A stretch of DNA of 63,661 nucleotides, filler included, from Hausera hauseri (lineage: Eukaryota): assembly GCA_046269625.1 (NCBI GenBank). It is 10 parts of 10 records of this genome, joined end to end, with 100 filler letters (N's around TTAATTAATTAA, not from the genome) between each part and the next. Parts side by side here need not be neighbours in the genome. Positions count along the whole stretch, not along the records: positions 36,005 to 40,056 come from JBJURY010792424.1; 9 more parts are not named here. One strand, written 5' to 3'. How positions within the stretch are numbered: the first letter of the stretch is position 1; each line of letters opens with the position of its first letter. Positions 25,710 through 61,078 of this stretch are shown in pieces. Both the position numbers and the translations under genes were made by a program. The notes under the pieces are model-generated. The model searched no databases and was not told the origin of the DNA. It saw only the letters and a program-made list of their open reading frames with translations.

Positions 25710-26800
25710 AAATATCATGCATCGAACCAAGATAATATCCTATACTAAGAGCAAAAAGGAAGAAGAATAATAATTATTCCAAAAGGATTGCGAACCGAAG
25801 TACTCATGGCCGAACATGATTCATATCTAGCCGGACATATGCCTTGGAAGAAAATGTTGGAGAGGATATTAAATAAATACTATTGGCCAAGTATCTATGT
25901 TGACGTGAAGTATTGGGTAGGTGCATGCGAAGTTTGTGTGACAAAACAAAAGAAAACAAAAGGCTGTGTAGCAGAATTAAAACCTATAAATGTACCGGAT
26001 AGGCTTATTCAAGCCATATCTATGGACATAGTAGAACGATTGCCTAAAACGCACAAAGATAACAGATACATTCTAACATTCGTAGATCGGCTAACGCATT
26101 TCGTTGAACTAATGGCACTAGTAGATAAAAAAGCAGAAACTTTAGCTAACGCAGTGGTGAGGAATATCATTTGTAGATATGGACCACCAGAACAAATCTT
26201 AACGGATAGAGGAAGGAACTTTACAAGAGAATTATTCGAGAAAATCAGTAAGATATTCGAAATCGAGCGCTTAACCACTACGGCGTACCATCCCCAATGT
26301 AATGGAATGGTAGAGTGGATGAACGCTAAAGTCATTCGGATCTTATCAACAGTAGTAGCAAAAGACCAAAAGTATTGGGATGAATTCTTAGGAGGAACAC
26401 AATTTGCGATTGATACAACTCCACATCCTGAAACGAGATTTACACCGTTCTTTACAATGTATGTGCGAGAGGCAATCTTACCCACAGATCTAGGTATGAC
26501 ACCACATGAAAAGAATTTCTGATATTTAGAGCAAAACTTCGGCGAAGTGTTACAGACAAGATGGCAAAAGTGTTGGGAAGTTTCAAAAACATTATTACTC
26601 GAATATCAGGAACAATTTAAGAAACAATATAATAAAAAAACCAAACCTCATGCCCTGGAAAAGGGAAATTGGGTTTATATACATTACCCAGTCGCGAAGA
26701 AAGGTACATCCCTGAAATTAACACGTACCGGAAGAGGATCATATTAAATCATTCGCATAACGCCGACCACAATGTATGTTAGCAAAATGAAAAAAAAGAA
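25710..26800 (+). mobile_element. Ty3/Gypsy integrase (HHCC + rve DDE core + GPY/F-like tail), disrupted
   Basis: HDSYLAGH...YYWP...CEVC; SMDIV; LTDRGRNF; AYHPQCNGMVE; tail KL...GRGSY. Stop at 26520-26522 interrupts the frame. Confidence 0.92.
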
Positions 26801-26963
26801 GTCGTATCAATCCAAAGAGTGGTTAAAAGAAACATAAGACCAGCTAAATACTACAATCTAAAACCGCGCGAAAACAAGATTTCGTCGATTATCGCTAGAT
26901 CATTATCTTATGCTCAAATAATAGTAGCTTTATCGCTGATTGCTGCGCTAACGCCCAAGTCTA

Positions 26964-27870
26964 ATGCCCAATGGTGAGTCGATGAAACTTTGTCCAGTGA
27001 CATATTAAATCCGGAGAAGCGGACTGAAACTTGTACCGCCAAAACCAGCAACTCCAGAATACAAATTAAAACAAAAAGCCAAAACCTTTTTACGAGCAAC
27101 AAAATTAGATTATTTTTCACCAGAAGCCCCATGTGTTGGGTTTAGGTTACCTATATCACATGAAGGGCGAATGCAAATGGTATTTCATGATCTATTAAAC
27201 CAAATAGAGTCCAATTGTAAATTCGAACCAGAAGACGACACATATTGTTGCAACGTGGTGTACGGACACTCTTAAACTCTTAGTTATCGTGCATATCTAC
27301 CAAACTGTAATGAAGTACACTTGGAAATAAACCTGAATTCATATTTAATTATACCAAAAACTTATGGAGATTATCTTAATATAGAGTTAGAAGACATGTT
27401 TCAATCCACTGATCCATTAAAGCGAATGTTGAAAGAGAATATAGCGAATGTAAAAGAAAACCAAAAGGATCGTTGTATTTAAATAAACACAAAAGGATGG
27501 TTGATTAAAGGACAAGTAATCACAGTTCAAATCTTGAGAAAAGGCAAACCAATTTCTAACCAACAGTATTGTCAAATCGACATTGAAAGGCCGGACAGAT
27601 GCTGTAAAATACCTCGAACATATGAATATAAGATTCGATTAGACTTATACGAAGTAAGAACCAACCAGTCAAGTATTTTTTTGGAAAGCTATGAATTGAA
27701 AAATTCAGTTTGAGGAATTACACCGAAAATGACTACGAGAAACATTACGACTATAAAAACGAATAAAACTATTACAGCTCTCACAAAATTTCACTAAACG
27801 ACAGGATTACCTCAGAAGGAGATAGAAATGATCCCGATTAAATATTGCAAAACAATATAAAAACGATAAA
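26964..27870 (+). pseudogene. Putative spliced accessory ORF downstream of Gypsy pol, unknown function
   Basis: ATG CCC AAT G|GTGAGT (donor 26974) joins ...TTTTTCACCAG|AA (acceptor 27123) in phase 1 to give MPNEAPCVGFRLP..., a long single frame with few stops that includes the 27501-27713 ORF. Confidence 0.45.
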
Positions 27871-30829
27871 TATTAAATACTAATCAATAATCAATGTTAT
27901 TTACCAAATTTATCCAACAAATATAATAACAATACGTTAGTTGCACATAACGGACATTTTATTCAATCCAATATTCAGTCTAATTCTTTTCCAACTTGAT
28001 GAAAATATTAAATAAATACAACAGTACAGTTCGTTCCTTGAGCGTTAATGGATTATAGAAATAATCTTTGACCGGATAAAATATTCGTTTCTGATAAGCC
28101 ACGAGACACACCGATAAACCACAAAGGAACAGAGTAAACAGCATCAAAAATTTCACTTGACACTAGTCTTACAATTTTTGTACCATCTGATGAACAAGTG
28201 AATATTTTATTCCAATGCCTTAATTCTAAATCGATTGAATTGTCTGACACATAATTCGTTGTTAAGAGTTTGTGCGTGCGTGTGTGCGTTTACGAATTAG
28301 ATTATCGAAATAATTGTAATAATGAATGAACGAAACATTGATGACATAATTTTTATTGAATTTTTCAAATTGGAATTAATACGTATATGGTTATTATAGA
28401 GTCATTGTTTGTATAAGCGTAGCATTTTAACCATTCAGTTTACTCTTGAAATCATCTGTTGAAATGTGTAATGTCTTTTCAAATTGTTTTGAAAAATAAT
28501 CGATTTTTTTAATTATACATGAAATTAAATCATCAGCTGTCATTGAAAATCACAAGGCGTTTATATTAAATACAATTACTGACACTTCTAATGTAGATTT
28601 GATATCGTTATTTATGTGCTTAGGAAGCAGTTGGTTTGTTTTATTTCCGACATGTTAAGCAGTATAATTATTCAGCATTAATAAATCATGAAACACGATA
28701 TATAAAGTTTGTTGTGATTCTTCGGGCGGTACGAAGGTTACTTTATATCAAATACGATTCATTAGTTTCAAGTTACGTACATGCGACAATGTTTACAAAA
28801 CTCACGATTTTACTTCTAAATGCAGATTTTTCTGACATTCTGTACAGGAAGATAATGTTTTATGATGAATTCAGTTGTGCATATTATTTTGCTCTTCGGT
28901 TCTTTTTACATACATGGTGGCTCTGCATAAATTATTTTATATTGAAAAAGTATTTTTGTTCACTTGCACAGTAATTGCATATTTCAAGTTTCATATTGAA
29001 ATTAAAAAAAGCGCTAAATTTGTTTCTATATCTAAATGATTTACTTTACATTACGACACATTTTTCGTCAAATGAAAATGCGTAAAAATGGGAGGCTGTG
29101 TATTTTGCACTGATTGTTTCTTAATGATGATCGAGTATTTTGGTAGTACGGTGTGGATTAGAGAATGGCGTAGCAAATATCGATGGAAAATTGAAAACGA
29201 TAAATTATAGTAGAGTCTTAGATGGTTGTAGTGATTTATTTTTGTAAATGGATTAAATACTGTGAGTAATTTTCAATGCACCAGTGACAAACAGCATTAA
29301 ATATTGATTAATTGATATCTTTTATTTCAGCGTTGGGATAATAACTATCAGTATGAGATTTTTTTGCATTTGTAATTCGGAATAAAATGTATGACATTGT
29401 CTACAATAATATTACGTTATTTCAACGGGAAATCAAATCATTTTATACGTAAATTACTGGATCGAAATGAACTTGTGAAGACCTTCCTTTCATAGGCACT
29501 ACTGTCTTTTTATCCAAACGTAAATATTTAATTTACTGGCTCATTCAAATTACTGAAACCAATTTTTAACAGACAGTCAGTGACGTCATTAATCACTAAA
29601 ACCATTTACCACGTGTTATTTGTGAGTGTTATGAAAAACGGTCACGGATTTGCCAAATTCTTATTGTACAGTAAATTGTGAGTGAATTAGCGTAACGAAT
29701 GATTTTTATTTATTTATATTATGGTGTAACAACGACACTAGATGGATTTATGTTAATATGGAAATTATCGTAATAACAAGTGGGAAACGGGGCTCAATGT
29801 AAAATTAATATACATTAAAGATTTTCATATAGAATTTTGCAAATGGACTCAAAACATTTGAAATGTAGAAATAACTTCATATATTTTCTTATATTTTCTT
29901 TACTTGTAATGTTCTTTCATTCGTATCTGTTATTGTATCTTACCTAATCTCTCTTGTCTCTCCTGTCTGTTCCCGTTATTTTATTTACTCATTTGTTACA
30001 TCTGTTGTAATATTTTGTTATACCTATGCTCATATGTTATGTTTTATTTATTCCTGAATTCTACACATTCCTCATCAAAGTAAGTAGACAACATGGACAT
30101 AATTCTTATACATATTTATTCTCCAACTTCAGATGCTTCACAAAAGAAGAACTAAATATTGTATAAACACATAAACATAGCACTTCAACAAGAGCTGAAG
30201 CTCAGTGATCTAAATCTCCCATAGACTTTTCTCCTTGATAGCCAAGTGCAGCATAAATCTGCCTGTGCTTCTGCTGCTATTGACCCTCCTTGTCAGGATG
30301 GTGTTGGACTCTTCAGTTAAACTAACTTGTAGTTGTACCGTTAAACTAACATGTAGTTACACCGTTTCCACAGTATTCTAAATTGTGTGGTTAGTTCCTC
30401 TGTCCAAAGACATGTGTTATGCCACTTATTTTGCCTCGCGCGTTAGTTCACTAACGCTATAATCTGGTGACAGACACCGCGGTTGACAGAACTCTTGTTT
30501 CCAATTGCGATCGCGAAAGTCCCATGACTACAAAAGAACAAGACTACTTTCACTGACACATCTGTTTACAGCATTTACGCTTTATACTTTGTATTTCAAG
30601 ACGTGCCACACTGTCATGTGTGTCGTATATCAAGTTTCAGCTTATAGCAGCGGTCTTCAAACTTACGCAGCTTGAGACATACTAAATAAACTATAAAATT
30701 AACACCAACATTTAATTACGTTACTGCAAGTTGCTAGTACAAAACTGGACACGAATGACTATCCCCGCTGTATATTCAATATCACGTATGCAATTTACAT
30801 CAATATAATATTGATATATCAGATGTTTA

Positions 30830-35904: not shown

Positions 35905-36005
35905 NNNNNNNNNNNNNNNNNNNNNNNNNNNNNNNNNNNNNNNNNNNNTTAATTAATTAANNNNNNNNNNNNNNNNNNNNNNNNNNNNNNNNNNNNNNNN
36001 NNNNC

Positions 36006-37871
36006 TTCTGGATACTCGTTGCATTAAGTGTTTTATTAGTAATATTAGGTTTACTTCTGCCCCCAGTAATTTATTATTCTAAAGTTAGACGGCGACAACG
36101 TAAAACAAAAGAGATAATAAGACAATTAAAATTGTTAAGGGAAAACTCCCAAGATAGCATAGGCGCGCCTCCCTTAAACAATGAGAATCGGCAAATCGCC
36201 GAACCTGAATTGTTTGATAACGACAATTGTCAAGCCGTAGAATTGACCGAATATAAACGGCAAAACTGTCCGTTAATGCTTACCGATGAGAATCGAACAA
36301 ATAAAAAGATTAAACGACAAGAAAGTCGATCAACTAATATAATTGTATATTATTGCACAGCGGTACAAGATAAGGCCGTTGAAATTTTTACGACCTACCA
36401 AAATTGCAAATTAAATAAACGAATTTATAGTCATAAACTATTTCTAAATCTTTCTTGGCTGATACTAATTTCTTTTTTTTCAGTTCAAGAAGGATCCGAA
36501 TTAGTGGAGAGAACAAAATCGTTTTATTTCAACATTATCAACAACATTAATCAAACAGTCGAGAAAGATTATTTGTATTTCGGTAAAGCCAATCTCATCC
36601 CAAACAACTTGAAAGGCCACTTGGTTGACCAGAGAGCCGGACTGATTATCAAATTGCCAAACGCCTCAACAAAACTTTCAGATCTTATTGATATCTCCAC
36701 GCGAACAACTTCTGTATATATATCTGTAGCAAAAGAAAAGTTGCAGATAAAAAGCAGAGCCCATATAAACGATTTTACTGATACCCTCGAAGTCACACCA
36801 TTCTCAACAGTCAGATTGGACAAGCGACTCTATAAGAATGTTACAATCATACTACGGGCATATGGAGGACAAGCCCCAATTGTCTACATCGAGGTAACTC
36901 GGAGAGAAAACCTTCCTCAGATTGAATGTGAGAAACCCCTTTACCCTGCCAATCTACCAAACCGAGAACAATTGGTATCTGGAATATCCTTCTGTCGATT
37001 ACCAAAAATAAAAGAAAATAGAATATGCGTCTTAGCAGTCAATTCCGCATACCTGTTAACCCCATTACGAAATAAAGAACTGACGTTGGTAGAAATAACC
37101 ATTATGAACTTACAAGGAACCATTATCTTTGATGAAGTTATCACCCCAAGGGAAAGAATCGACAATTATAATAGCCAAATTACCGGACTAAAAGAAACAG
37201 ATATTCAAGGACAGATGGATTCTTATCAGGCCAGATCTTTAATTAGACAAAAATTAAATGGAAGATTAATTGTTGGTATGGATGTATATAACAATAACTT
37301 ACATCTGGATCTGGTTGACACTAATGCCATTCACGGTATCCGAGATTTGTTGTACCATTGTGAAATAAATCCAGAGAAAAAACTTACTCAAAAACAAATT
37401 CTGATGAAGTATAACGAAATAGTATATCCCCTCCGTACCCGAGAAAAGGCTCTTGTAATGCTAAAAATTTACAAATCGATTTGTGAGTATAAAGTGGATA
37501 ATGATGAAATTCATGAACAATCCTCCATTTCAAAAGAAATCTCTCAACAAGCCTTATCAAAAACTACCTCTAACCCAATTTCTGAACCAATGGACATCGA
37601 TAAACCCTTAAAGACCTCCATTCCGGACCAACCAACTACCAGTGAAATGGTTCCTATTATAAACTCAAACGACTCCATTACAATTGACCTTACAAAAACC
37701 AAGAAAAGAAGAACAACTCGTGAAACGGTCACCCTGAAAAAGAAAATCCGGAAGGGCAATCAGTGGTTGCGGTTAGATTCCGCTAATTATCGATATACAA
37801 ATGGAATTCTGGAAACCTACCCTCTGGCGCTGAGGACAACGCCATCTGAGGAGGGAAGTGTTGACAATTAG
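36006..37871 (+). CDS. LTR-element 3' ORF: transmembrane helix + tail + unknown domain + inactive REX4/ISG20-like DEDDh exonuclease fold
   Basis: The frame is open from the contig edge (FWILVALSVLLVILGLLLPPVIYYSKVRRRQRK). Segment VEITIMNLQGTIIFDEVITPRERIDNYNSQITGLKETDI...LNGRLIVG...IRD aligns by eye with REX4-like nucleases, but the acidic catalytic residues are missing. The ORF ends across a polypurine tract. Confidence 0.65.
   Translation, partial: FWILVALSVLLVILGLLLPPVIYYSKVRRRQRKTKEIIRQLKLLRENSQDSIGAPPLNNENRQIAEPELFDNDNCQAVELTEYKRQNCPLMLTDENRTNKKIKRQESRSTNIIVYYCTAVQDKAVEIFTTYQNCKLNKRIYSHKLFLNLSWLILISFFSVQEGSELVERTKSFYFNIINNINQTVEKDYLYFGKANLIPNNLKGHLVDQRAGLIIKLPNASTKLSDLIDISTRTTSVYISVAKEKLQIKSRAHINDFTDTLEVTPFSTVRLDKRLYKNVTIILRAYGGQAPIVYIEVTRRENLPQIECEKPLYPANLPNREQLVSGISFCRLPKIKENRICVLAVNSAYLLTPLRNKELTLVEITIMNLQGTIIFDEVITPRERIDNYNSQITGLKETDIQGQMDSYQARSLIRQKLNGRLIVGMDVYNNNLHLDLVDTNAIHGIRDLLYHCEINPEKKLTQKQILMKYNEIVYPLRTREKALVMLKIYKSICEYKVDNDEIHEQSSISKEISQQALSKTTSNPISEPMDIDKPLKTSIPDQPTTSEMVPIINSNDSITIDLTKTKKRRTTRETVTLKKKIRKGNQWLRLDSANYRYTNGILETYPLALRTTPSEEGSVDN
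37848..37858 (+). promoter_or_regulatory. Polypurine tract of an LTR retrotransposon
   Basis: GAGGAC...GAGGAGGGAAG immediately followed by TGTTGA. Confidence 0.65.
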
Positions 37872-38871
37872 CAGATAACAGATGGTCATAAATTATGTCG
37901 GTGATCCATTTTTAAACGACTGAACATTCACATGTAATTATAAATATTCCAATGTGATTATTTTGAATGCTGTTAAATTCCCATGTGATTTTTCTTCATA
38001 CTCTTAATGTAAATAAACAGTATATAAACCTACTTACTGACCGACTAAATCATAAATCTACTTACTTGCTTATATTATTGTGTATCAACCTCAGACTATT
38101 GTTGCAGTTTCCATGTATTACAATTGTTGTAAGTATCATCTTTATTCTTATTGCGTAATTTTTGTTGTATGTAATTAGTAATACATATTGTACGGTAAAT
38201 TATTTTCTTTTATATATTTTAAGGATAATTAAGGATTTGTTAAACTTAGGGCCCTCTTTTGGTATTCCGCCCATAAGGCGGTTGTCTAAACTCTTATAAC
38301 TAAGGGGATACGACACTAGTGTACCTCCTAGTGATCGTTACACACGCATACACCAAACTAATTGATAAAGCAGACCCCACAGGCTGCTTTTAAGATTGAA
38401 TAACAAGTAGAGTCTTGGGAGCAAATTACCCTAGACTATATTGAGTAGTATTTTATAGTATAAGTTTAGGGTTGAGAAAAACCCAAACTTCCTTTCTAAC
38501 CCATTAAACTTATCACATTTAATTTTAAATATTTTGATACTACTGATTAATTTATCAGTAATACGTAACTATTGTTAATTAATGAAAGTAATTATTTGAT
38601 TCGAACTGAATTCGCGAAAGAGTAACTCGTTGACCTTGGATAATCTTAAGATTCGGTACTTATACAGTATCCTCCCCATAGATATATTACCCTTAATATC
38701 AAATGCATATAATTGATAAGCCAGGGATCAAACGATCCACGAGAAGCTAGTATAACCTCTAAACAAGTGACCAACGAACGAAAAATATGTAAAGCAAATA
38801 TCAAAGTCGGACCATATCACCACTCCCAATTGATATGACATTATTGGTAGCCAAGGTCGGTTTCATCAACA
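37859..38871 (+). mobile_element. Putative 3' LTR (right boundary uncertain)
   Basis: Begins TGTTGA after the PPT. Candidate end TCAACA at 38866-38871 forms a 6-bp terminal inverted repeat; an alternative end is GACA at 38840. Confidence 0.45.
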
Positions 38872-39655
38872 GAAAATGAATGACGTCCGAACATGGCCGT
38901 GTAAATGCTTCGGCTATTTTCACAGCAATTTTGCCATGTTCAAGCCCTGCTAATGGGGAACCATCAACTTCGATAATGATGTCTCCTTCTTCGATTTCAC
39001 CACAAATTCCGGCACAGCTTTCCTTCTACTAACGAAATTTTATCGAAACAATATTTTCATTCAAAACAACGAATTCTAGTTTATTTATTCCCGAAGTGGT
39101 CTCTATCGGCTTCGATACGTTTTTAACATCTTTAGATAGTTACCATCAGCATCTCATTTTGCACTTTCAATAGACTCTTTTCGAGTTTCGAGCTTCGTGC
39201 TAGTTTCTAAGCATTTATTTCGTTATTCCTCTCCCTAAACCTTGACGCCTTTGGTAAAGAGGGTTAACGGGATTTTTTGCGTTCTAAATCGCCCCATCCT
39301 CAGATATAACTTCTTTCTACCTTTTAACAGTGGTTTTCAATTTTGGTTGGTCAATCGGCATTTTGAGCCGTCAAGTAACATTCTTTTGGATTTATTTTAC
39401 GTTTAGGTAGCTTACGAAATAGCAAACTAAGCATGACAAACTTACATCAACTTTAACAATATATGGAAGTATATGAGGTGTATTAATGCCTCCTTCGATC
39501 GACAAACCGAGCTGCGGCATTACTTTGTAAACCGTTACGAATTTCGTAACTTTGTTCTGGGACTTTTTGATTATTTCTGTTTTTGGAATTTCAAATTTTG
39601 GTGGCCCCATCAGAACGGACTTTCTTTTGGGATTTGGTTCCACGTTTGTGTGCAC
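38801..39655 (-). CDS. WHRN: Whirlin/PDZD7-like protein, last two exons encoding the C-terminal PDZ domain (39655-39446, 39025-38801)
   Basis: Spliced product ...VTVYKVMPQLGLSIEGGINTPHILPYIVKVD|KESCAGICGEIEEGDIIIEVDGSPLAGLEHGKIAVKIAEAF...DVIHFL aligns to whirlin PDZ3 (LGIAIEGGANTRQPLPRIVTIQ...VILEVNGLTLRGKEH...IAEAF...DYIDFL). Canonical GTAAGT and AG sites, phase 0. Confidence 0.8.
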
Positions 39656-40156
39656 CTGTTCAAGATAAAACACTGAATTTTGTTCTATTAAACCAAAATT
39701 TAGCTCAGTTTGTTATATAGTATATTTTATGTAGAGTAATTATGCTTTGTATTATATGTTACGTCGCTTTTTACTTCTTCAATTTTCCCCTAACATGCAG
39801 AAGAATTTTGAAATTTCATAAAATTTTCTTTTCATTTTTCAACCAATATTTTACTAAAGTCCAATTTCCAGTTTGTCATTCATGTTATGTCAAAGTACAA
39901 TGTATTCGTTTAATTATCAGTTACATCACTAATATTTCTTTCTATAAAAATATTAAATTTACACATGAATTATAACATAGTAGGTGGAAAATTTATCTTC
40001 GACCTCACCCTCGGGAGTGGGGTTATCGATAGATCGATACTGCACCTGTGCCAATTNNNNNNNNNNNNNNNNNNNNNNNNNNNNNNNNNNNNNNNNNNNN
40101 TTAATTAATTAANNNNNNNNNNNNNNNNNNNNNNNNNNNNNNNNNNNNNNNNNNNN

Positions 40157-40335
40157 GTAGCGTATCGTTCAAATCCAGGTATTCATTGTCCGATGCCATA
40201 ATGTTGAATTGAATGTCAATGTTATCGTCCGTTAGCCAAATCAATGGGGTAGATTTCCTCAAATGCCTCATTGTCAATAACAACTTTTGGCGCCGTTTTG
40301 TCAAATATACACAATTCAGATTTTGCAGATGCCAT
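40157..40335 (-). pseudogene. Major capsid protein N-terminus, copy A
   Basis: MASAKSELCIFDK...IQFNIMASDNEYLDLNDTL, same as copies B and C. Confidence 0.8.
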
Positions 40336-40359
40336 TTGCATATCTGTCAGTCAATCAAT

Positions 40360-40732
40360 CAATCAATTTAAAATCGTACGACGGCGACGACGACGTTTGT
40401 TTATAGCTGATGATCTCGATGATGCACTACGGCTTTTTCTCATCATCAAGCCACTGCCAGCGAATTGGTTTTGACCGATTCAACGACTCCCGGTGCATCA
40501 CTTTTTATTTCGGTCAAGGCTTGTTCCTTCAATGATGGTAAAATCGATTTGTTTTCATGTAGTACGTCCTGTGCCGTATTGCTGCCACGGCATCGATACG
40601 CTTCAACACCGGAAATGCTAAGCGTGCCAATGTACGCAACCATCCAGAGCCATTCTGTTTACAAACAAAATACGGTAGTTCACCGCCCTGCTGAGGTTTA
40701 CTGTAAATAGAAACGATTTCAGAATCAGTCAT
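40360..40732 (-). pseudogene. pVI/PW-like virion protein, copy A
   Basis: QQGG and QxGSG adenain-type cleavage-like motifs followed by amphipathic WLRTLARLAFPVLK and an Arg-rich C-terminus. Confidence 0.65.
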
Positions 40733-40824
40733 ATTGTTGTTGTTGTTGTTGTTGTTGTTGTCGTCGTCGTCGTTGTTGTTGTTGTGGTTGTCGTCGTCGT
40801 TGTTGTTGTTGTTGTTTTTGTTGT
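40733..40824. repeat. (GTT/GTC)n microsatellite in Maverick intergenic spacer
   Basis: Directly visible; only a few GTT units at the same site in copies B and C. Confidence 0.9.
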
Positions 40825-40825
40825 A

Positions 40826-41834
40826 CTCGACAGAAATGAAGCGTTAGACTGGTTGTAGTACGTACAGAAATTCGATAAGGTAGCCCGCGTCACATCGGAT
40901 ATTCACTTCAACATTGTTTACAGATGTAGATACCACAGGTAGGTACATTGGATTATCCAGCTTGACAGTGGCATTGTCGCCGACAGTATACTTGCCGCTT
41001 TTTGGATAAATTGCTCGAAGTAGTGGTACACGTACTCCACCGACCAAAATCGGTTCGGTGACGTTTACGTAAATGTACATTTGACTTAGTTCCCTTTTCA
41101 GTTTGGGTTTAAGTGTTGCAAGTGTTGGCACATTATATCTCAAACCGCTGTTTTTCAAAATCCAATACCATGGCCAAAGCTTTGTCCAATGAAATATCGA
41201 CTATATCCTTATTCAGTTCAAATTTAATGTACCCATTTGTATCTGACTTCAAAACTTTAAATATCGCCTTGTACTTTTTATTAGAAAAAAAACGTGTTGA
41301 CACAGCTGTGCTACAGATTCACAATAGACATAGTCTCCAATCGATACGTATGACGTTAGCACCCTTCCTGTTGTATAGGTAAATTTCACAGTTGTCTGGT
41401 AATATACGGGACTTAACCTTGGAGCAACTATATTTTCACTTTTAATGTGATTGCCTTTGTACTCTGTATTTGTAAATCCAAATTTCTGCGCCATCTCAAA
41501 TGACGGAAAGGTAACGGTAAATTCAAAATTTGCCATGAAAGCTAAGTTTTTCCCTAAAATATAAACACAAATTTTGCCGTGTGAACCGGAACCTGTTTCG
41601 ACCGTGCAAATGGCCGATTCTTCACCAACCGTTATTTTATTGTTAGTAAATGTCAGAGGGCAAGAATGTGTTTTGGTTTCAGTAACGTTCTTGTTGTACG
41701 TTATTTTCATACTACCTTTCAATGTTACCGGTGCGTAGGGAAAGTTAAATTCCGTCAGTGCAACCTCCCATTTTTAGATAAATCAAAAGAATTGTTCCTA
41801 TCTACAACGTATTTACTGACGAAATTGTTCGGAT
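40826..41834 (-). pseudogene. Penton/minor capsid-like paralog 2 (long), copy A, N-terminus deleted
   Basis: WEVALTEFNFPY...MYIYVNVTEPILVGGVRVPLLRAI...NPMYLPV...VEVNIR. Confidence 0.75.
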
Positions 41835-41852
41835 GGTAATGCAGTTTGTTTA

Positions 41853-42515
41853 TTATCCACGACGACGCAAATGTAACGTCAAATGTGGCGTTGACCCAAA
41901 CAGAAATTTAATTGGTTCCCAAAATCCATCAAGCATATACACGGAAGCACTGTTCACAATACTGTGAGGCAGTGATAAGTACATGGGTCTGAGCATATTA
42001 ACGCGAACAGTTTAATTCGATGTTTTGTACTTGTCAGAATCCAGTTCGATAGAAGCCACTAGTTGCTTTAGTTCTCCGCCAACGAGTATTGATTTGGTTG
42101 AGTCCGTTAAAATGTTGATTCTATGAAATGCTGCATAGAGTTTTGGTTTGTATTTGGCAACAATAGATTGTCCAACAGTGTTTTGGTAGAATTCGCGTTT
42201 TTAAAAGTCTGATTCCGAGAAATGTTGTCGCATATAACTGCGAAGTGTATATTGGTTATTGTGTGAGATTGTCCGCAAACGGCTTGAAATATGGTACGTT
42301 TCTTGTCGGATAAAGTGAATACCACTGTTCTGACGTATTTTCATTGATGAAAATGTAAATGTGAATTCCGCCAAAGCCACTTCCCAGACTCTGTTGAGTA
42401 AATCGACCGGTTCGTCCAAATGCATGGTAAACTGTTTAGCGGTATTGTCATTGTCGTCATGTTATAATAATGATCTGTTACTATCAAGTACCAAGTAAAT
42501 GCTGCTGCTGCTCAT
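41853..42515 (-). pseudogene. Penton/minor capsid-like paralog 1 (short), copy A
   Basis: IYLVLDSNRSL...NTAKQFTMHLDEPVDL...WEVALAEF at the start and SILVGG...RPMY...THLTLH at the end. Confidence 0.7.
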
Positions 42516-43588
42516 TAAATCTGTGATGCATAAATCCAACTCAGTGCAGTGTGTCCGTACCACTTGACGAGATATTGTTTATTCGAAACTTTGCCACATG
42601 AACGTAGAATTTCCTGAATACGATATACATCGGGTTTCTGGGGCAGTACTTGCAGTTCCTGTTCGTAGAATTTACCGCACGTTTCCTCGCCGTTTTCATC
42701 CTCTAAAACGTACATGACATGTGTTTGTTTTGTGTTGATTGCCGAAATGCGGAAAACCTCGTCGCTTCAGTTCTGATTGAAATTCTTAATGAATGGCGTC
42801 GTACTTATTTTCGAAATACGTACATAAGCACCGATTTTATATTTTGGGTGACGACGTCCTTCTTGTCGGTTGGTGTTTTTTTGATAAAGCCGCATGTCCA
42901 AATCATCGATTACGTCAACCGGTCGTAATCCATTGATACTGCGATGTGTCGAATGATTGTATGCATGAATAATATCCGGCAGTACACCTATCCAACATTT
43001 GTTGCCCTGCTTCGTAACGAATTTGTTTAGATGACTGCGCAATGTTTGATTAAATCGTTCAACGAGTGCAGCCTTGCATTGGGAAAACACCGAGTAGTGG
43101 TTTACGTCGAACCGTTTCAAGACCGCTGAAACGTGGGTGTTATAAAATTTCTTACCCAAATCCGTTTGTAAGTGCTTCGGTTGTTGTTGTTGTTGTATCA
43201 GCATCTGAACAGTGTCGGCAATCTCTTTACCAGATTAAGATTTCACAGCAATTGCACGTTCAAAACAACTAAACACATCAACACACGTCAGCACGTACCG
43301 ATACCCATTATTGATGCTAGTGTACGGAATCATTTCCATCAGATCCATTTGCCACACATTATTTACACCGGCGTCACGGTATACACGAGTTGGAAACCGC
43401 CATCTTATTGGTTTGTTTAGGCTGTATGCTAACTGTTCCCCGAGTCAACGTTGGGTCTGTTGCCAAGTTTGTTTGACAGTCTTTGCCAGTTTGTCGACGC
43501 GAGTATAGCCGATGGAATGACGCGGGTCGAACTACACATCGCCCATTGTTGTTGCCGCCAATGGTGTCCGTTTTGCTGCTGCTTGCAT
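42515..43588 (-). pseudogene. Maverick rve integrase with C-terminal chromodomain, copy A
   Basis: WQMDL, LQTDLGK, ALVERFNQTL, YNHSTHRSI, KFYEQELQ, YRIQEIL...YLVKWYG...SWI. Confidence 0.9.
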
Positions 43589-43702
43589 TACAACAATTAG
43601 AACAAAACGTAAATGAAAGATTTGGTAAACTGGGACAGAAAGATAAAAACCATATACCCATATCGCCGAATCATCATATACTTACCATCATTGTTTATAC
43701 TA

Positions 43703-44029
43703 TCATGTTGTTGCAGAACCGATGAGTCCACCCACTAATGACACGACAATCGGTAGAATTGTGCCAAGGAATCCACCGTCTTGCTGGTACATAATCTCTC
43801 GTTTCAGTCGTTTACTGCGGGTGTTGGCAAGGCCAATAAGTCGTTTTCGATACTTTAGTAAATTCCGCTTTCCACTACCAATGTCAACGTGACCCACGAC
43901 GATATTGTACAAAATTTCCATCAAATCGTCTACTACAAACTGTGGGAATGATCGTAGCATGTTTCGCTTATGTCTCGTAGGTGCCTTGAGCAAAGCAATA
44001 AAGTACGGCTGACTACGGTTGAATTGCAT
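43703..44029 (-). CDS. Maverick small protein with C-terminal QxGGFL amphipathic peptide (protein X-like), copy A
   Basis: Intact 108-aa ORF ending YQQDGGFLGTILPIVVSLVGGLIG, a motif common next to Maverick ATPases. Confidence 0.7.
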   Translation of the reverse strand: MQFNRSQPYFIALLKAPTRHKRNMLRSFPQFVVDDLMEILYNIVVGHVDIGSGKRNLLKYRKRLIGLANTRSKRLKREIMYQQDGGFLGTILPIVVSLVGGLIGSATT

Positions 44030-44079
44030 GCTTTTTTGTGGATGTATTGATGATGATGATGACGATGAGACTTAGTTGT

Positions 44080-44263
44080 TTATAACCGTTGCCACTTTGA
44101 AGGTAATTTGCGTCTAGGTACTGATGTTGTTGTTCGACAAAACACAGAATTGATTAATCGTTTGACTGTAGCGGTGGTTCGTTTTTATACACGTTTCTTG
44201 CAGCCGGACACCCGCTTTGTAGTAAGTTTACGTTTAACAATTTATTTTTCGGAAATTCTTCAT
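44080..44263 (-). pseudogene. Small Lys/Arg-rich protein (putative DNA-condensing core protein), copy A
   Basis: MKNFRK...KRK...KKRV...RRKLPSKWQRL, homologous to 61439-61607. Confidence 0.45.
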
Positions 44264-44281
44264 TTTGTTTTTTTATCATAA

Positions 44282-44979
44282 TCATGTCGTTGATTTTCGA
44301 ATTTGTTTATAGACACATACACCACCTTTCTGATTGATAATGTCTGTTCGTACACTCATGTCATCGGGACACTGTTGTGTAAAGTCCATGAACAAGTATC
44401 CATTTGGTTCGGTCGTACCATCAAGATATGCATCTATTAAGCAGGCTCGATTGTGAAAAAATGCTTGCCGTGAAACATAATCAATGATAGTTTAATCACG
44501 GGGATTTTTGAACAACACCAAATAGTGTACGTTTATATTTCTTGTTCTATGCTGCCCGCCCTGATGGAACATGTTTTACGTAATGAAAATAAACGTCACA
44601 CCGTGGTGCCGCGCAATCTTCGTGAACAGGTTGTTGAGGTCCGATTGTTTCGCGGCTTCTTGAAATAAATCGGCAATGAAAATAACGTCACCGTTGCGTA
44701 GTCTCTCTGTCCAGTTCTCATCAAACCCATCAATTACCGTTATTGATTTCAGTTTACAAAATTCCCGATTTGTCAAAACATACTCACCATCATCACCAAC
44801 ACCCTGATGCCAGTATATGTGATTGTACCGCGGTTTATGGAACATATCACGGTAGGTCTGCAATAGTTTACACACAAAGTGTGTTGTGCCGCTTCCACTG
44901 GGGCCTACAGTTTGGAAATTGGCATCATTCTGCTGCTTTATCTAATAATAATAGTAATAATGCAACTTTTCCTCACCAT
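44282..44979 (-). pseudogene. FtsK/A32-like packaging ATPase, copy A (35-nt intron after ATG)
   Basis: Walker A VGPSGSGTT (K lost), Walker B VIFIADL, LFTKIARHHGVTFIFIT, NVHYLVLFKNPRD, KPNGYLFMDF. Confidence 0.88.
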
Positions 44980-45044
44980 ATGATTTGTTTATAATCGTGT
45001 TACACGCATATGTAAATAGCTATAGTATAAACACTGTTTCCATA

Positions 45045-45310
45045 ATGTTAACTAATATCAACTATCGCGGACATGTTACCTAGTGTGTCATTAACACACT
45101 ACCTTTTAATCAATGGAAACCGAGGCAGTATGTCCTCCGGTGTCCACTGGATTTTACATGCATCGTATTTCAATCGGGAAAGTGTCGTATTACGGGTTGT
45201 CGCAAACCAATCACAGCTGACAACAGTAAATTATTACCATTCGTAATTGTCATTGACAAAATCAAATCAATAACGGTAACGACTCAGTTAGACTACCACC
45301 AAACAATCAA
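45045..45310 (+). pseudogene. TATA-binding-protein-like gene of the Maverick, copy A (N-terminal part)
   Basis: MLTNINYRGHVT*CVINTLPFNQWKPRQYVLRCPLDFTCIVFQSGKCRITGCRK...IKSITVT; IVFQSGKCRITG matches TBP repeat-1 LIFSSGKMVCTG. Confidence 0.75.
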
Positions 45311-46460
45311 NNNNNNNNNNNNNNNNNNNNNNNNNNNNNNNNNNNNNNNNNNNNTTAATTAATTAANNNNNNNNNNNNNNNNNNNNNNNNNNNNNNNNNN
45401 NNNNNNNNNNCATTGATATGGCTTTATACTAAAATTGAATCCATCAAGATTCTCTTTGTTATATTCTTTGTAACTGATGTTTGTTAAGATTATACTATCA
45501 GAAGTATCCTCACCTAACCACTTCCCAAAAAGTGCTCAGATCGAGCTGGAAACCAGTTTTTTCCACCTATCCCGCAATGCTGAGCATTTCATGTCTGATG
45601 GTCGGAAACCCTCCGCCAGAGACAGAAGAAAATCTGTAAATGGACTTTGAACCGAGACCAATCGTTCCAGCCGGACAAGGTGAACAAATGTTAACAGCGC
45701 CGCGAAGCTGAAAAATGTAACCCGGTGGTACAGGAGACAGAAAAAGAAAAACGGACAATGTGCAACTGACAACGCAACACATGTTGCTGGTATACCCAAA
45801 TTTTGTACAGACGTAAAATTGTTGTTAGCAAGTCGAATGGACACGGTTTCCTCATCGTCCGACCAAGGAAACATGGGGAAAACCGGTTGAGAAAATTTTC
45901 GTCTGGTAAAATTTCCCCACGTTCAAGTCTGCCGATGATAGAAATAGGTCTCAGACATTGCCCGTAAGTTGGGGGAAATTTCATAACCGCCTCACGATCG
46001 GATCAACGGATTCGGGTGAAAAATGCAATCGAAAAACACACTGTTAAAAGTCAAAATCATTATCGTTGTAAATGCATTGGTTTTTTGTAAAAATCGTGAA
46101 TTTTGTATTGTACGACGACGACGACGACGTTTAAAACCGAACGCACAAATTACCACGAGCTCATAATTAAGTACTACTACTACTCACAAGGAGGTGGTGG
46201 TGGTGACACCTAAGACCGTCTGCCTACAAACTAATGAGTACCACCAAATGTGTAACGAAGATATTGTGAAGCTGCATATTCGGACTCACCGCAATGAGTT
46301 GAGGCGGATAAAATTTTGGCCTGACCCAGTTTAGGACACCTGCATATTCGGATTCACCGCAATGAGTTGAGGCGGAAAAAATATAACAAGTTGTATATTT
46401 AATAATCACAATAACACTCTGCCTGTCTATTCAAAAAAGCGGAATACGTTTAGTCAATGT

Positions 46461-46868
46461 TCACAATAATGTATGTAATGTACGTTGCAATAGGTAGTAA
46501 TGTCCACGCAATAGGGTAAGTGGATGTTGATAATGAAGTCGATTATATTCAACACGATGATATGTTTGTCTTTCAATTTGAGAAACTAACGATGACGGTT
46601 AATAATACCCGACCGGATCGAATGCCTTGACGAAGGTCGGATGTACGTACACCACAATCCAATGTTTGCCCGGTAACAATGAACTGTGTGAATTAACGAT
46701 GAAATCTCAGCTACCATTTTGTCTTAATTCACGCGGCACACGGTCCATTGGAAACACACCGCGAAATTTTGCGCCCATGAGTAGTTTTCCATAGTGACCG
46801 TGTTCAGTTGAGCTAAACGTAAAACGTGATTTAATCATAATTGTAATAATGGTAATAAATTACTTCAT
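46461..46868 (-). pseudogene. Adenain-like cysteine protease, copy C (51-nt intron in codon 2)
   Basis: MN|STE...FRGVFPMD...IVNSHSSLLPGKHW...FDP...YQHPLTLL(R)G; catalytic His, Asp and Gln present, Cys codon mutated. Confidence 0.85.
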
Positions 46869-46896
46869 GGTACAAAGAGGAAGAAGAAGGTTTTAT

Positions 46897-48059
46897 TTAT
46901 ACAATGACTGTTCCGTTTTTCGTTATGTCCACCTCGGCATGAAATACACCGTAAAAGTACATCATGGTAGACTGCTCCAACGCTTTAGCAAAGTGATTCT
47001 CCAATCGTATGTTTGCCTGTTTGGGTAGATGAATCTGTTCAAAGACATAACCCGGAGCCAGGACAAAGATGAAGAATGGATATGTGGACCCGACCAAATC
47101 CATCGATATGTCATTGCTGACGTTTTTGCTCAGCAAACCCTTGTTGCGCCCTATGGATATGTGCAAACATAATTATTAAACTGAATGTCTTGTTAGTACG
47201 TCTCAACGAAATCCGCATTCCGACCCAAACTGATGTCATTTACATTGCTAGGCGTAAACGTTTCAGAATCGGTGGTATATCTGCCCGTTTGTTGAGCAGT
47301 CGTTTGAAATGTAACGAGCGCAAATTTCGGCAATCACATGTCGCCAAAGAGTGAGTCCTTGTAAACGTTGTCGAACCTTTTGGTATGGTGTAAAAGAAGG
47401 GTTCTGTGCGTTGTATTGGGTTTTGTGTTTTCAAGCCAAATCGATGTTCCATGAGCACAGATGGTTCTACCTTTACACGACGAACGTATAATCGTGCCTC
47501 GGTAATTTTCAGTATGGATTTGAGATTTGCAACTGCGGTTCTCAAACAAAAGACACTGTTGCTTCGTTTGAGCCGAATAATGGCTTTAACACCGGGTGGT
47601 AGGTATTTCGGCTAATCGAAAAAGTCAAAGTACAGCGGTCCACACATTGTAAGTGCTTTTGATTTTCCAACCCATGCCAGACGGTGTGCTGCCGTGGCGT
47701 CATATCCTATGGTTTTTGCCAAATGAGTCGTTTTCATGTCAGTACTGTAATTCAGAGCCGTTTAGAGTCAGTGAAAACTCTTGGAACAGTGTGAGGCAAA
47801 GGTAATTGGCCGGTGTAACAGTGTTTGTTTCAGCGAGAACCGTTGATGCATCCTTTTTAACAATGACTTTTACATACAGTAGCGTATCGTTCAAATCCAG
47901 GTATTCATTGTCCGATTCCATAACGTTGAATTGAATGTCAATGTTATCGTCCGTTGAAACCGAGTCAACGGGGTAGATTTCTTCAAATGCCGCATTGTCG
48001 ATAACAACTTGTGGTGCGGCTTTGTCGAATATGCACCATTTAAATTTTGCAGATGCCAT
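46897..48059 (-). pseudogene. Major capsid protein (double jelly-roll, PY-type), copy C
   Basis: YLDLNDTLLYVKV, GPLYFDFF...YLPPGVK, LKITEARLYVRRVKV, NIRLENHFAKAL...YGVF, typical of Maverick MCP. Confidence 0.85.
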
Positions 48060-48069
48060 TTGTCTATCA

Positions 48070-48419
48070 ATCAATCGATCGAAAATTGTAAGACGACGAC
48101 GTTTGTTTATAATTGAAAAGCTAGCTGATCTACCACGTTTTCTCAAGCCACTACCAGCGAATCGTTTTTTGACTAATTCAACGACTCCCTGTGCAGCGCT
48201 TTTTATTTCGGACAAGGCATCTTCCTTCAGTGATGGTAAAATCGATTTGTTTTCATATAGTACATCCTGTGCTGTTTTACTACCACGGCTCCAATAGGCT
48301 TCAACACCGGAAATGCTAGACGTGCCAATGTACGCAACCGTCTAGAGCCATACTGTTTACGGTAGTTTACCGCCCTGCTGCAGTTTACTGTAAATGGATA
48401 CGATTTCAGAATCAATCAT
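48070..48419 (-). pseudogene. pVI/PW-like virion protein, copy C
   Basis: KQYGSRRLRTLARLAFPVLK...FAGSGLRKR...INKRRR. Confidence 0.65.
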
Positions 48420-48423
48420 GTTG

Positions 48424-49466
48424 TTAGATTAGACGGAAATGAAAAGTTAGACTGGTTGAGGTACCGTACGGAAAGTCAATAAAGTAGCTTGCGTCATATC
48501 TGATATTGACTTCAACATTGTTTATAGATGTAGTTGCCACAGGTAGGTACATTAAATTATCTAGCTTGACAGTGACATTTTCGCCAGCAGTGTACTTGCT
48601 CCTTTCCGGATAAATTGCACGGAGTAGCGGTACACGTACACCACCAACCAAAAACGGTTCGGTGACGTTCACATTTGACTTAGCCCAGTTTTCAGTTTGT
48701 GTTTAAGTGTTGCAACATGTTCTGTCTTCGTATTCGATGTCTCAAACCGCTGTATTTCAAAACCCAATACCATGGCCAAAGCCTTGTCCAATGAAATGTC
48801 GATATCCTTAGCCAGTTCAAGTTTAATGTACTCACTTGCATCTGACTCGAAAACTTTAAATATCATCTTGCACTTTTGATTTGAAGAAAAGTGTTAACAA
48901 AGATGTGCTACAGATTCGCAATAGACATTGTCTCCTATCGATACGTATGATGTTGACACGATTTCTGCTGTATAGGTAAATTTCACCGTTGTCTGGTAAT
49001 GTAGGGGCTTAATCTTGGAGCAACTGCATATTCACTTTTAATATTTTTATCTTTGTACTCTGTATTTTTGAATCCAAATTTCTGCGCCATCAGAGGACTG
49101 AAAGGTGACAGTAAATTCAAAACCTGCCATAAAATGTAAGTTTTGAACTAAAAACATGGATTTTGCCGTGTAAACCGTAATTTGCTTCGGTCGTGCAAAT
49201 GCCCGATTCTCCAACTGTTATTTTATTGTTAGTAAGTGTCAGAGGACATGAATCAATTTCGGTTTCAGTAACAGTCTTGTCGTACGTTATTTGTATACTA
49301 TCTTTCAATGTCACCGGTGCGTAGGGAAAGTAAAATTCCGTCAGTGCAACCACCCATTTCCAGATAAATCCAAAGGATTGTTCCAATCTACAACGTATTC
49401 ACTGGCTGAATTGTTCGGACGAGTCGTCAGACAACTGCTGCTCGGCAAAACCATGTAAATGCTCAT
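48424..49466 (-). pseudogene. Penton/minor capsid-like paralog 2, copy C
   Basis: MSIYMVLPSSSC...NNSASEY...PLDLS...LVGGVRVPLLRAI...MYLPV...YGTSTSLTFHFR. Confidence 0.78.
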
Positions 49467-49745
49467 GATCTCGATGATATCGATAATCTCGATGATCAAG
49501 ATGATCAAGATGATCAAGATGATCAAGATGATCAAGATGATCAAGATGATCGAGATGATCAAGATGATCAAGATGATCAAGATGATCAAGATGATCTCGA
49601 TGATCTCGATGATCTCGATGATCTCGATGATCTCGATGATCTCGATGATTATGATGATCTCGATGATGATGATGATCTCGATGATGATGATGATCTCGAT
49701 GATGATGATGATCTCGATGATGATGATGATCTCGATGATGATGAT
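49465..49745. repeat. Compound minisatellite (GATGATCAA)n / (GATGATCTC)n / 15-mer
   Basis: Directly visible; runs into the contig end. Confidence 0.95.
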
Positions 49746-49845: not shown

Positions 49846-50420
49846 ATCACTTTTCCAATTACTCCTTCAACAAATGGCATCACTGGTGCTACCATATCTG
49901 GATTCATTATTACCAAAGCCATACTGTTTCGTATTATTTCATAATTTAATTTACGCTCATTCATATTTTTTCTCTGCATAAACTTCTAATCTCTTTCCTT
50001 ACATAGTTGATTAAGAAATCAATCTTATTATCAAAATATTGCGTTAATTTTATATCCTTTTTATTTATCTTTGTCGTTGCTCCAGGTATTTCTTTTGATG
50101 ATAAGAAAATACCTTTATAATTAGTTCTAAATATTTCTTCGTTACATTTGTTTATCGTTCCGGTGACTTTAAATCGCATCATTTCCTCTGGATTTGCCGA
50201 ATACACGATTGTAGCTACTTCCGTCATCTTAACTTCCTTCGTTCTTTTTTTATACGTTGGTGTATCCTTCTCAACCATGCTACCCACTGTCTTATTGAAT
50301 CTTCCTTCTTTCAACAGCGTTAATTGACACTTGTTTATAGGTGCTTCCCATGTCATTTTTGATTCTCCGGTATTGCATTCACCACTGTCATATTCGCATT
50401 CACTTGTTAGATGTAGGGGT
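49846..50420 (-). pseudogene. Env-like glycoprotein remnant resembling chuvirus G / gB-like class III fusogens of LTR elements
   Basis: CEYDSGECNTGESKMTWEAPINKCQLTLL...C...IFRTNYKGIF...DIKLTQYFDNKIDFL...NPDMVA shows the Cys/Trp and helix pattern of this family, recognised by eye. Confidence 0.55.
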
Positions 50421-53400: not shown

Positions 53401-53681
53401 GTTGTCAGATGATTTAGGAAATTGATTTCCTGTTTTCGTCTCGTTTTTGCAATCAATTCTCTTATTGTCGAATTAATAATTCGTATCGTCAGACGTTAAT
53501 TTCCTGTTTTCGGAATTCGTCAGACGTTAATTTCCTATTTGCGGAATGTTTCGTGATTGCCACAAATTAAGAATTTTATTTAATTAAAAGAATTTCTGAA
53601 TTTTATTCAATTAAAAGAATTTCCCATTTATTAACATTCAACCATTCCGCACCGTCAGCCGTTGCCCACAATTCATATACA

Positions 53682-54008
53682 TGTAGCAGTGAAGGAGTGG
53701 ATACCCATCAGAGGGTTTCATATTTCAAAAGAAAGTAAAAGCAGAAGATTTATTCAAGTCGTATTCAAATGTTGTACCAATTAGAATCACATTCAAATGT
53801 TGTTCAATGTACAAACTGTAAATATACAAGATGTTAATAGTGTTAATTCAGGAGGATAATGTAATTCTGAAGTTATAAATTAGAACTTCTCCAACGTTCG
53901 TTATTTAGTCACTCTCAACATTTCTCCCCCCTTTGAAAAGGATTCGGTCCTCCGGATCACACTGAGTACTGACATCGACGAAACTGAGATTTCTGGGTTT
54001 AATCGTCA
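53682..54008 (-). mobile_element. 3' end of an LTR retrotransposon: PPT (53921-53934) + ca. 239-bp LTR (53920-53682)
   Basis: Minus strand reads GAGGAC...AAAGGGGGGAGAAA then TGTTGAGA...AATAAA...CTACA. Confidence 0.65.
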
Positions 54009-55220: not shown

Positions 55221-55629
55221 TCACAATAATGTATGTAATGTAAGCCATAATAGGCAGTAATATCCAAACAATATGGTAAGTGGATGTTGATAATAAAGTC
55301 GAATATACTCAACACAATGATAATGTGATTGTCTTTCAGTTTGAGAAATTAACGATGACGGGTAATAAAACACGAGTGAATCGAATACCTTGACGGCGGT
55401 CGAATGTGCATACACTGAAATCCAATGTTTGCTCGGTAACGATGAACTGTGTGTATTGACGATCAAACCTCCGCCACCATTTTGTCGTAAGTCACGCGAC
55501 ACACGGTCCAGTGGAAACACCGCACAATTTCACACCCAAGCGCAGTTTTCTATAGTGACTGAGTTCAGTTGAGCTAAACGGAAAATATGATTTAATCATA
55601 ATAGTAATAATGGTAATAAATTACTTCAT
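55221..55629 (-). pseudogene. Adenain-like cysteine protease, copy B (51-nt intron 55574-55624)
   Basis: MN|STEL...FPLD...LIVNTHSSSLPSKHW...VFDS...YQHPLTIL(F)GYYCL. Confidence 0.85.
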
Positions 55630-55660
55630 GGTACAAAGACGAGGAAGAAGAAGGTTTTAA

Positions 55661-56882: not shown

Positions 56883-56889
56883 TTGTCTG

Positions 56890-57249: not shown

Positions 57250-57255
57250 GTTGTT

Positions 57256-58307: not shown

Positions 58308-58309
58308 GA

Positions 58310-58343
<34 letters not shown>

Positions 58344-58376
58344 AATGATGATGATGATGATGACGCAGTTTGTTTA

Positions 58377-60967: not shown

Positions 60968-61078
60968 TACAACAATTAAAAAGAAACGTAAATAAAAGAT
61001 TAGGTAAACTGGGTCAAAATGATAAAAACCATGCACTTATATCGCCGAATCATCATACACTTACCTTTATTGTTTATA

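Follow-up and report, generated by a model that had tools for sequence, protein, structure and literature searches.

What does an LTR element make from a long open frame that begins in a membrane helix and runs into a predicted exonuclease fold from which the catalytic residues are gone? The frame lies within a window of 63,661 nucleotides of Hausera hauseri DNA that consists of ten unrelated contigs, joined by N-TTAATTAATTAA-N linkers. Its own contig, JBJURY010792424.1, covers only 36005-40056 of the window (4052 nt).

The last gene of a multicopy element

A sequence-only reading of this locus had described an uninterrupted frame of more than 620 codons in an otherwise decayed neighbourhood. 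The frame exists at that length, and base composition puts the chance of a 621-codon open frame at about 5e-20. The decayed neighbourhood does not belong to it: because the ORF sits at the edge of a 4052-nt contig within a joined stretch, the decay is that of other contigs. The other landmarks of that reading, a transmembrane helix with a basic stop-transfer at the contig edge, an acceptor motif and a purine tract running into TG, are present in the sequence (Table 1). It had passed over the β-helix domain (aa 165-300), the acceptor candidate at 36360, the lack of any in-frame ATG between M91 and M367, and the convergent whirlin-like gene.

Table 1. Features of contig JBJURY010792424.1, in window coordinates
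Feature	Position	Strand	Remarks
Open frame	36006..37871	+	621 aa + stop; 5′-truncated at contig edge
Transmembrane helix (aa 4-22) with basic stop-transfer	36015..36131	+	hydropathy 2.82; 9 K/R among the 20 aa that follow
Cytosolic tail/linker, frame open through to the downstream domains	36132..36483	+	low pLDDT
Further candidate splice acceptor, weaker, phase 1 (branch motif ... CAG)	36334..36360	+	
Candidate splice acceptor (CTAAT, T-tract, CAG), phase 1	36465..36483	+	
Predicted double-stranded β-helix domain, family motif IPNxLK, without HxD/E...H iron triad	36498..36905	+	
Predicted DEDDh (ISG20/REX4-type) pseudo-exonuclease domain, 0/5 catalytic residues	37020..37511	+	phmmer, Foldseek, structure alignment
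C-terminal tail, low confidence, probably disordered	37512..37871	+	pLDDT < 50
Polypurine tract immediately 5′ of TG	37848..37858	+	
Putative 3′ LTR, TG...CA, ~660 bp, right end inferred	37859..38517	+	AATAAA at 38012
Whirlin-like PDZ gene, last two exons, host flank	38801..39655	-	exons 39655-39446 and 39025-38801, GT-AG intron

Contigs of two sequencing runs, X1 (perhaps from the source sample) and X2, gave summed depths of 113-2879 (X1) and 5-81 (X2) over 36005-38588, against 3.5-10 and 0-3.6 over 38589-39676; depth in these runs is not equal to copy number. High cover stops between 38477 (depth 2214) and 38554 (depth 16). An LTR reaching from the TG at 37859 to a CA at 38517, about 660 bp, would be in keeping with this edge. 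The multicopy part comprises the ORF and about 650 bp beyond it, with hundreds of diverged variants across the ORF region in the two runs, and the ORF stop codon lies 13 nt inside the putative LTR. The junction of a purine tract with TGTTG recurs 3′ of the nuclease ORF in two related loci, L002 and L003, and a further contig of the window has it as well; by a strict rule, a purine-tract/TG junction was not found in most other relative loci. Neither gag, pol, env nor a second LTR was detected on the 4-kb contig itself.

Beyond the element, 930 bp past the ORF stop, is the convergent whirlin-like gene, whose two minus-strand exons match whirlin PDZ domains with E 2.7e-6 and 0.13. This gene is host flank. 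We considered the PDZ exons as element cargo and ruled this out by their low cover relative to the element. Other contigs of the window carry a decayed gypsy integrase followed by a signal-like stretch, and a decayed env of the class III type seen in relatives. Judging by these contigs, which are separate from that of the ORF, elements of this kind occur among the sequences examined here.

Within its multicopy element, likely a giant env-before-pol Ty3/gypsy LTR retrotransposon, the ORF is the last gene. Multicopy cover, the PPT/TG junction and relatives that lie inside Ty3/gypsy elements uphold the LTR-element origin first proposed from sequence, and we hold the anatomy and origin set out here to be highly probable.

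Two predicted domains and their protein family

A Pfam search of the 621-aa protein (P0001) gave no curated match. In a phmmer search of PDB sequences it matched ISG20 (E 3e-5), ISG20L2 (0.002) and SDN1 (0.21). An AlphaFold2 model, built from an alignment of 30 rows, was confident at about aa 161-300 and 340-495 and of low confidence elsewhere, except in the first helix. Residues 339-502 of the model aligned with ISG20 (Z 17.1, rmsd 2.5, 159 residues aligned), and Foldseek matched the model to an ISG20-type fold with E 3e-8. The model has an RNase H-like DEDD fold, as anticipated when a REX4/ISG20 DEDDh pattern was first noticed at about 37020-37490. Its best structure matches are DEDDh rather than DEDDy enzymes, and intact relatives have the corresponding H...D. 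Exuperantia matched at Z 10.0, and exonuclease structures of arenaviruses and nidoviruses, which use DEDDh exonucleases against host sensing, occupied lower rows of the same comparison. A structure comparison with BFVD returned only distant exonuclease and AlkB-type matches.

We defined the catalytic columns from intact relatives; none of the five residues is kept in P0001. The D-x-E of ExoI is replaced by N346 and A348 and the acidic residue of ExoII by N430, while the H and D of ExoIII, where the register is uncertain, correspond to L476 and K481. Since there is no H or D anywhere in aa 455-495, the ExoIII loss holds in any register. Replacement at all three motifs had been read from the sequence and stands. 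Residues that bear the fold are kept although all five catalytic sites have changed, and aa 339-502 models as an ISG20/REX4-type DEDDh fold without catalytic residues.

Residues 165-300 were modelled as a double-stranded β-helix of the AlkB/cupin type. Folded alone, this segment aligned with ALKBH6 (Z 10.2, rmsd 5.0, 135 aligned), Ofd2 (Z 10.1, rmsd 2.9, 127 aligned) and ALKBH7 (Z 9.9, rmsd 2.9, 126 aligned), and small cupins tied with these at Z 9.9 and 9.8 over about 93 aligned residues. The HxD/E...H iron triad is absent from the P0001 domain; HxD/E occurs somewhere in 7 of 35 family β-helix domains, never in a conserved column. A β-helix profile found no credible match among PDB sequences or in Pfam. 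On the strength of the model, the domain may at most be called an AlkB-type binding barrel, not a member of the enzyme family.

Searching 1.84 billion representatives with phmmer, we found 74 matches to P0001. The best, P0002 (E 5e-23, 27% identity over 384 columns), is also catalytically dead. After five near-duplicates were dropped, 68 of 84 stored proteins had a nuclease match of at least 120 aa; 17 of these rows were set apart by eye as host REX4-like, leaving 51 of element type. The two types separate at SH-aLRT 99, and the β-helix profile, which was built from family members, matches 0 of the 17 host-type rows. Among the element-type rows, 28 of 51 keep all five catalytic residues, 16 keep two or fewer and are classed as dead, and 7 are incomplete.

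The dead rows are deeply diverged and sit on long branches. When the catalytic columns were included they fell on one side of a branch (SH-aLRT 88); when these columns were left out, a quick tree needed five changes to account for catalytic loss, and a single clade of dead rows was not rejected (p-AU 0.43). One intact homologue, P0010, falls with RNase_T clusters at a score below 0.9, which makes it a lead only. None of 20 family proteins that we looked up has a meaningful name. A word-indexed protein search gave no match to P0001 at near length, and with profile A2 it gave eight matches, all nameless; as weak evidence, the same type of search found no fused membrane-nuclease form among proteins of 1949-5000 aa. 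Scans of IMG/VR confirmed 0 of 26 stretches with P0001 and 0 of 55 with A3. By its sequence, then, P0001 is assigned to an unannotated β-helix plus DEDDh family that has both active-type and dead members.

Relatives' loci and the link to the membrane tail

JGI contigs scanned with 12 intact-type proteins yielded 18 confirmed loci among 283 stretches. All 18 are intact-type because the queries were, so that the gene-context evidence comes from intact-type loci, several of them near-identical in lineage, and none of it from the 15 other dead proteins. In L001 and L004, a single ORF of 3000-3200 aa encodes env, then protease, RT, RNase H and integrase. The env is a Monjiviricetes-type fusion glycoprotein (PF24664, E 1e-84 and 1e-94). 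The polyprotein ends, after the integrase, in a membrane module that consists of a signal-like stretch, an ectodomain and a helix with a basic tail, and the nuclease is a separate ORF behind it. Pfam matched none of eight post-integrase ectodomain pieces. RING, TRAF-like and coiled-coil ORFs lie 5′ of the nuclease in L005, as do a membrane ORF and coiled coils in L009, while in L008 the nuclease is followed by an LTR-like stretch and then by gag. The order gag-pol-env-ORF that had been suggested from the sequence does not hold in the two long relatives, where env is 5′ of protease and RT and another membrane module ends the polyprotein.

This arrangement bears on the helix at the start of our frame. 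In L001 and L004 the env helix has 2-3 K/R among the 20 residues behind it, and 1900-2400 residues follow. The last, post-integrase helices of L001, L004 and L009 have 6 K/R in the same interval, compared with 9 in P0001, and end 61-94 residues before the stop (84-94 in L001 and L004); in L001 and L004 this helix adjoins the accessory ORFs. From these K/R counts and this position, we take the ORF to begin in the C-terminal part of a post-integrase membrane protein. The helix and basic tail of P0001, described earlier as env-like, are thus likely the end of a type I protein of this kind, which they fit better than the relatives' env. L004 offers an existing case of cytosolic domains placed after an internal helix whose tail is basic. 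We rejected aa 145-163 as a further membrane or signal segment: its hydropathy, 1.39, is below the 1.8 used for other segments, and we read it as a translated pyrimidine tract.

The relatives' nuclease ORFs are probably expressed from spliced RNA. The motif TT[TC]AG occurs no more than 7 nt before the first nuclease-ORF ATG in 11 of 18 loci, compared with 2 of 221 internal ATGs; the 18 loci fall into fewer lineages and so are not independent. Spliced subgenomic expression, earlier proposed for this ORF, appears as a habit of the family. Given the ATG gap between M91 and M367, a product starting at acceptor 36483 needs an ATG from an upstream exon. The nuclease has an ORF to itself in all 18 loci, where an in-frame stop precedes the IPN motif by 37-113 codons. 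Fusion to a membrane tail is seen only in P0001, in which the 197 codons before this motif contain no stop.

Is the fused frame under selection? Copy differences were scored on the best-supported 40 of 679 and the best-supported 40 of 107, of which 68 fall in the ORF. Synonymous changes account for 46 of these 68, where 23.3 would be expected, and stops for none (3.2 expected). This supports coding selection, which the sequence-only reading had proposed to check by dN/dS. Within the same scored set, synonymous changes make up 11 of 15 at 36006-36360 (P 0.0005), 14 of 17 in the β-helix segment, 4 of 7 in the nuclease segment (not significant, P 0.23) and 7 of 11 in the C-terminal tail. These counts show that the membrane tail and the β-helix are clearly coding. 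Across the nuclease, X2 record 14 has 51 differences and no gaps over 579 nt. We regard a functional pseudo-nuclease as quite probable.

The synonymous excess is weak in the 41 codons before the acceptor (36361-36483), where 10 of 18 scored differences are synonymous (6.8 expected, P 0.09) and none is a stop. Diverged-contig cover jumps at 36477, from 552 to 2326 in X1 and from 62 to 145 in X2, so that acceptor 36483 marks a step in conservation; a common copy difference at 36481 still leaves a YAG there. Cover also rises at 36367, near the acceptor candidate at 36360.

The strongest alternative, which we consider unlikely but serious, follows from this junction: two genes would merely share a frame, with a functional, soluble pseudo-nuclease made by splicing and its link to the membrane tail an unselected accident of the subfamily. 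The stop in 18 of 18 related loci, the conservation step at the acceptor and the weak synonymous excess just before it all favour this explanation. However, the 33 scored differences in 36006-36483 include no stop, where 2.4 were expected (P 0.08); a 12-nt insertion found in copies at 36151 is in frame; and the single 2-nt gap in copies of this region is confined to a low-depth contig. Moreover, ribosomes translating the upstream gene meet no in-frame stop before the nuclease and so continue into it. The link from tail to module is open in the copies seen, and selection on it is a candidate, not proven.

Possible function, precedents and remaining alternatives

A reading that accommodates these observations, to which we give a probability of roughly 0.6, is that P0001 is a selected accessory protein of an env-before-pol gypsy element, with two predicted domains that both lack catalytic residues, and that it would bind RNA 3′ ends without cutting them. 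RNA 3′ ends are trimmed by ISG20 and SDN1, and intact relatives may act in the same way, the dead form keeping the binding step. Since relatives show the acceptor-plus-ATG pattern, a spliced subgenomic mRNA, in which an ATG-bearing leader is joined to acceptor 36483, could give a soluble two-domain protein. As P0001 lacks the stop by which relatives keep the two genes apart, translation of the post-integrase membrane protein might also run on into this module, which would then form its cytosolic end and be tethered to a membrane. By gripping RNA 3′ ends uncut, P0001 might shield element RNA or hold host small RNAs away. That such shielding or a small-RNA decoy is its job we propose tentatively. 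More speculative, and on balance doubtful, is the further step in which a membrane-tethered, non-cutting pseudo-nuclease would capture 3′ ends of small RNA or genomic RNA at particle assembly and serve as an element-encoded suppressor of RNA silencing.

Several known systems resemble parts of P0001. The Juno and Vesta LTR retrotransposons of bdelloid rotifers carry an ORF3 of the DEDDy (RNase D-like) type with intact catalytic residues, and ORF3s are typically expressed from spliced messages (PMC5408684). The likeness is an accessory ORF with a 3′-5′ exonuclease fold behind pol in Ty3/gypsy elements; in contrast to those ORF3s, which have no TM domain, P0001 is DEDDh and dead, has an extra β-helix domain and is in frame with a membrane tail, and so is not of the intact RNase D-like type. 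The giant Burro gypsy elements of planarians have an in-frame env before protease, along with RING and MATH/TRAF domains; the portions consulted name no exonuclease or AlkB-like domain for Burro, their mentions of DEDD concerning Terminons (PMC6431247). Compared by description only, Burro shares with L001, L004 and L005 the env before protease in a huge polyprotein and the RING and MATH/TRAF domains. GAG-ENV-POL errantiviruses with HSV/gB-type env occur in nematodes, bryozoans and flatworms, in a study whose main text, so far as it was available, does not discuss accessory ORFs, splicing or exonucleases (PMC13524379); they have in common with L001 and L004 the env-before-pol order and a class III, chuvirus-like glycoprotein.

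For the β-helix, the nearest precedent is a Ty3/gypsy AlkB/2-ODD ORF of Phalaenopsis, an active m6A demethylase close to plant AlkB that is linked to host RNA surveillance (PMC9289625). Both would represent a 2OG-oxygenase-type fold as retrotransposon cargo, but in P0001 the fold, known from the model only, has no iron triad and is joined to a nuclease fold. P0001 shares the DEDDh fold and sequence pattern with the cellular enzymes ISG20, ISG20L2, REX4, SDN1 and Pan2 (for ISG20, with the scores given above), and differs from cellular DEDDh exonucleases in having 0/5 catalytic residues, in its separate clade and in a β-helix domain that no host-type row matches. With Exuperantia, Maelstrom and EXD1 it shares a DEDD fold without catalysis; those are host germ-line proteins of other DEDD subfamilies, whereas P0001 is element-encoded and on the REX4/ISG20 branch. 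Among the matches of full-text searches in an open-access library there was no paper on a DEDDh gene, or on a β-helix plus DEDDh gene, in LTR elements. Together, these comparisons suggest that a nuclease of the REX4/ISG20 branch was captured independently, combined with a β-helix domain and retained across a diverse, unannotated family.

It is also conceivable, though less so than an accidental link, that the dead module is a protein decoy or scaffold without RNA binding, for example a dominant-negative form within a host complex of REX4, ISG20 or ERI-1 type, or a particle component. In its favour, catalytic residues are gone from both domains, and the RING, TRAF and coiled-coil genes of relatives are directed at host proteins. 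Against it, Maelstrom and EXD1 are described, in the portions of the rotifer study that treat them, as inactive DEDD proteins that keep RNA binding (PMC5408684), and the best matches of both folds are nucleic-acid-handling families. The decoy and the unselected fusion both concern details and overlap with our main reading.

An env-pseudo-nuclease fusion, in which a gag-pol-env element would anchor its env C-terminally by this helix, seems improbable. In general, a basic tail behind a helix does resemble env, and the sequence upstream of 36006 is off the contig, leaving room for an env ectodomain; yet the env of L001 and L004 precedes the protease, and its helix has fewer K/R behind it than the post-integrase helix and lies far from the end of the polyprotein, whereas the post-integrase helix lies close to the stop and next to the accessory ORFs. 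We give still less weight to a captured exonuclease that is decaying by drift, its frame open only through recent spread of the element. The dead rows do have long branches, and the seven differences scored in the nuclease segment are too few to show selection. Nevertheless, the fold-bearing residues and a confident model persist although all five catalytic sites are replaced, the 16 dead proteins keep long open frames at no more than about 33% identity to P0001 over the domain, and the β-helix differences are mostly synonymous. A single-copy host gene, domesticated or Exuperantia-like and lying tail to tail with the whirlin-like gene, is very improbable: a normal spliced host gene is indeed close by and the contig has no pol, but the difference in X1 cover between the ORF and the whirlin exons in the same run, the many diverged variants and the separation of element-type from host REX4-like proteins largely refute it.

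Accessory exonuclease genes of LTR retrotransposons are already in print from rotifers, where they are active-looking and DEDDy. If the reading of P0001 as a non-cutting RNA-end-binding protein is true, giant env-before-pol gypsy elements would carry a β-helix plus DEDDh weapon against RNA defence, in versions that cut and versions that do not; of the family members sampled, about a third are catalytically dead yet open. The relatives show retrovirus-like complexity, with env before pol, a second membrane protein and probably spliced RING, TRAF and nuclease genes, and element catalogues based on gag, pol and env alone would miss such accessory genes. Natural pairs of active and dead proteins make the counter-defence of animal retrotransposons against RNA surveillance testable in vitro.

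Polyproteins and gypsy remains

The loci L001 and L004, JGI contigs carrying a related nuclease ORF, encode polyproteins of 3000-3200 aa in which env is placed ahead of two protease-like stretches; these also contain one or two additional signal-ectodomain-TM modules, whose fold is unnamed. Decayed gypsy sequence occurs on other window contigs (table). Behind the integrase (38% to L001) come a stretch resembling a signal peptide, a segment rich in Cys and a stalk rich in Thr, a layout matching the post-integrase layout of L001 and L004. The decayed env is of Monjiviricetes type (chuvirus-like), at 28-33% to the env of L001/L004, and the RT-RNase H region, of gypsy type, matches the same loci.

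Accessory domains and unrelated contigs

In two further such loci, L005 and L007, accessory ORFs lie in arrays upstream of the exonuclease gene; their members carry RING (twice), TRAF-like RING/zf-TRAF/MATH and coiled coils. Among the homologues, P0047, a dead nuclease of the same beta-helix + DEDDh family, has a RING-like motif at its C-terminus (read by eye); the tail of P0016 is a long acidic repeat.

Four contigs carry fragments similar to one another (70-90%), with an rve integrase match and a weak Pox_A32 ATPase match, which we infer to be Polinton-like. Another contig is satellite-like, its strand composition skewed to an extreme degree towards T (AT skew about -0.85).

Features of the window and of related loci
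Feature	Location	Strand
RT-RNase H region	3-1552	-
T-rich contig (19 kb)	6251-25609
Integrase and following segments	25710-27900	+
Imperfect palindrome (64 nt, 72%)	38519-38582
Whirlin-like exons	39655-39446, 39025-38801	-
Short repeat	about 39770-39950
Polinton-like fragments	40157-49745, 54109-63661
Region with the env	49846-54008	-
Purine tract/TGTTGA junction, same region	53920	-
Polyproteins	L001 2-9040; L004 1-9624
Accessory arrays	L005 1-6730; L007 54-4655

The neighboring host gene

The palindrome lies immediately beyond the inferred LTR end. A diverged PDZ gene, whirlin-like, is convergent with the element; its last two exons lie here, are low in cover and are therefore host DNA. Upstream of them, a MITE- or SINE-like repeat has extremely high cover (depth of up to 65,000 in run X1, summed over contigs and not a copy number). 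The PDZ gene is evidence that the host is an animal.
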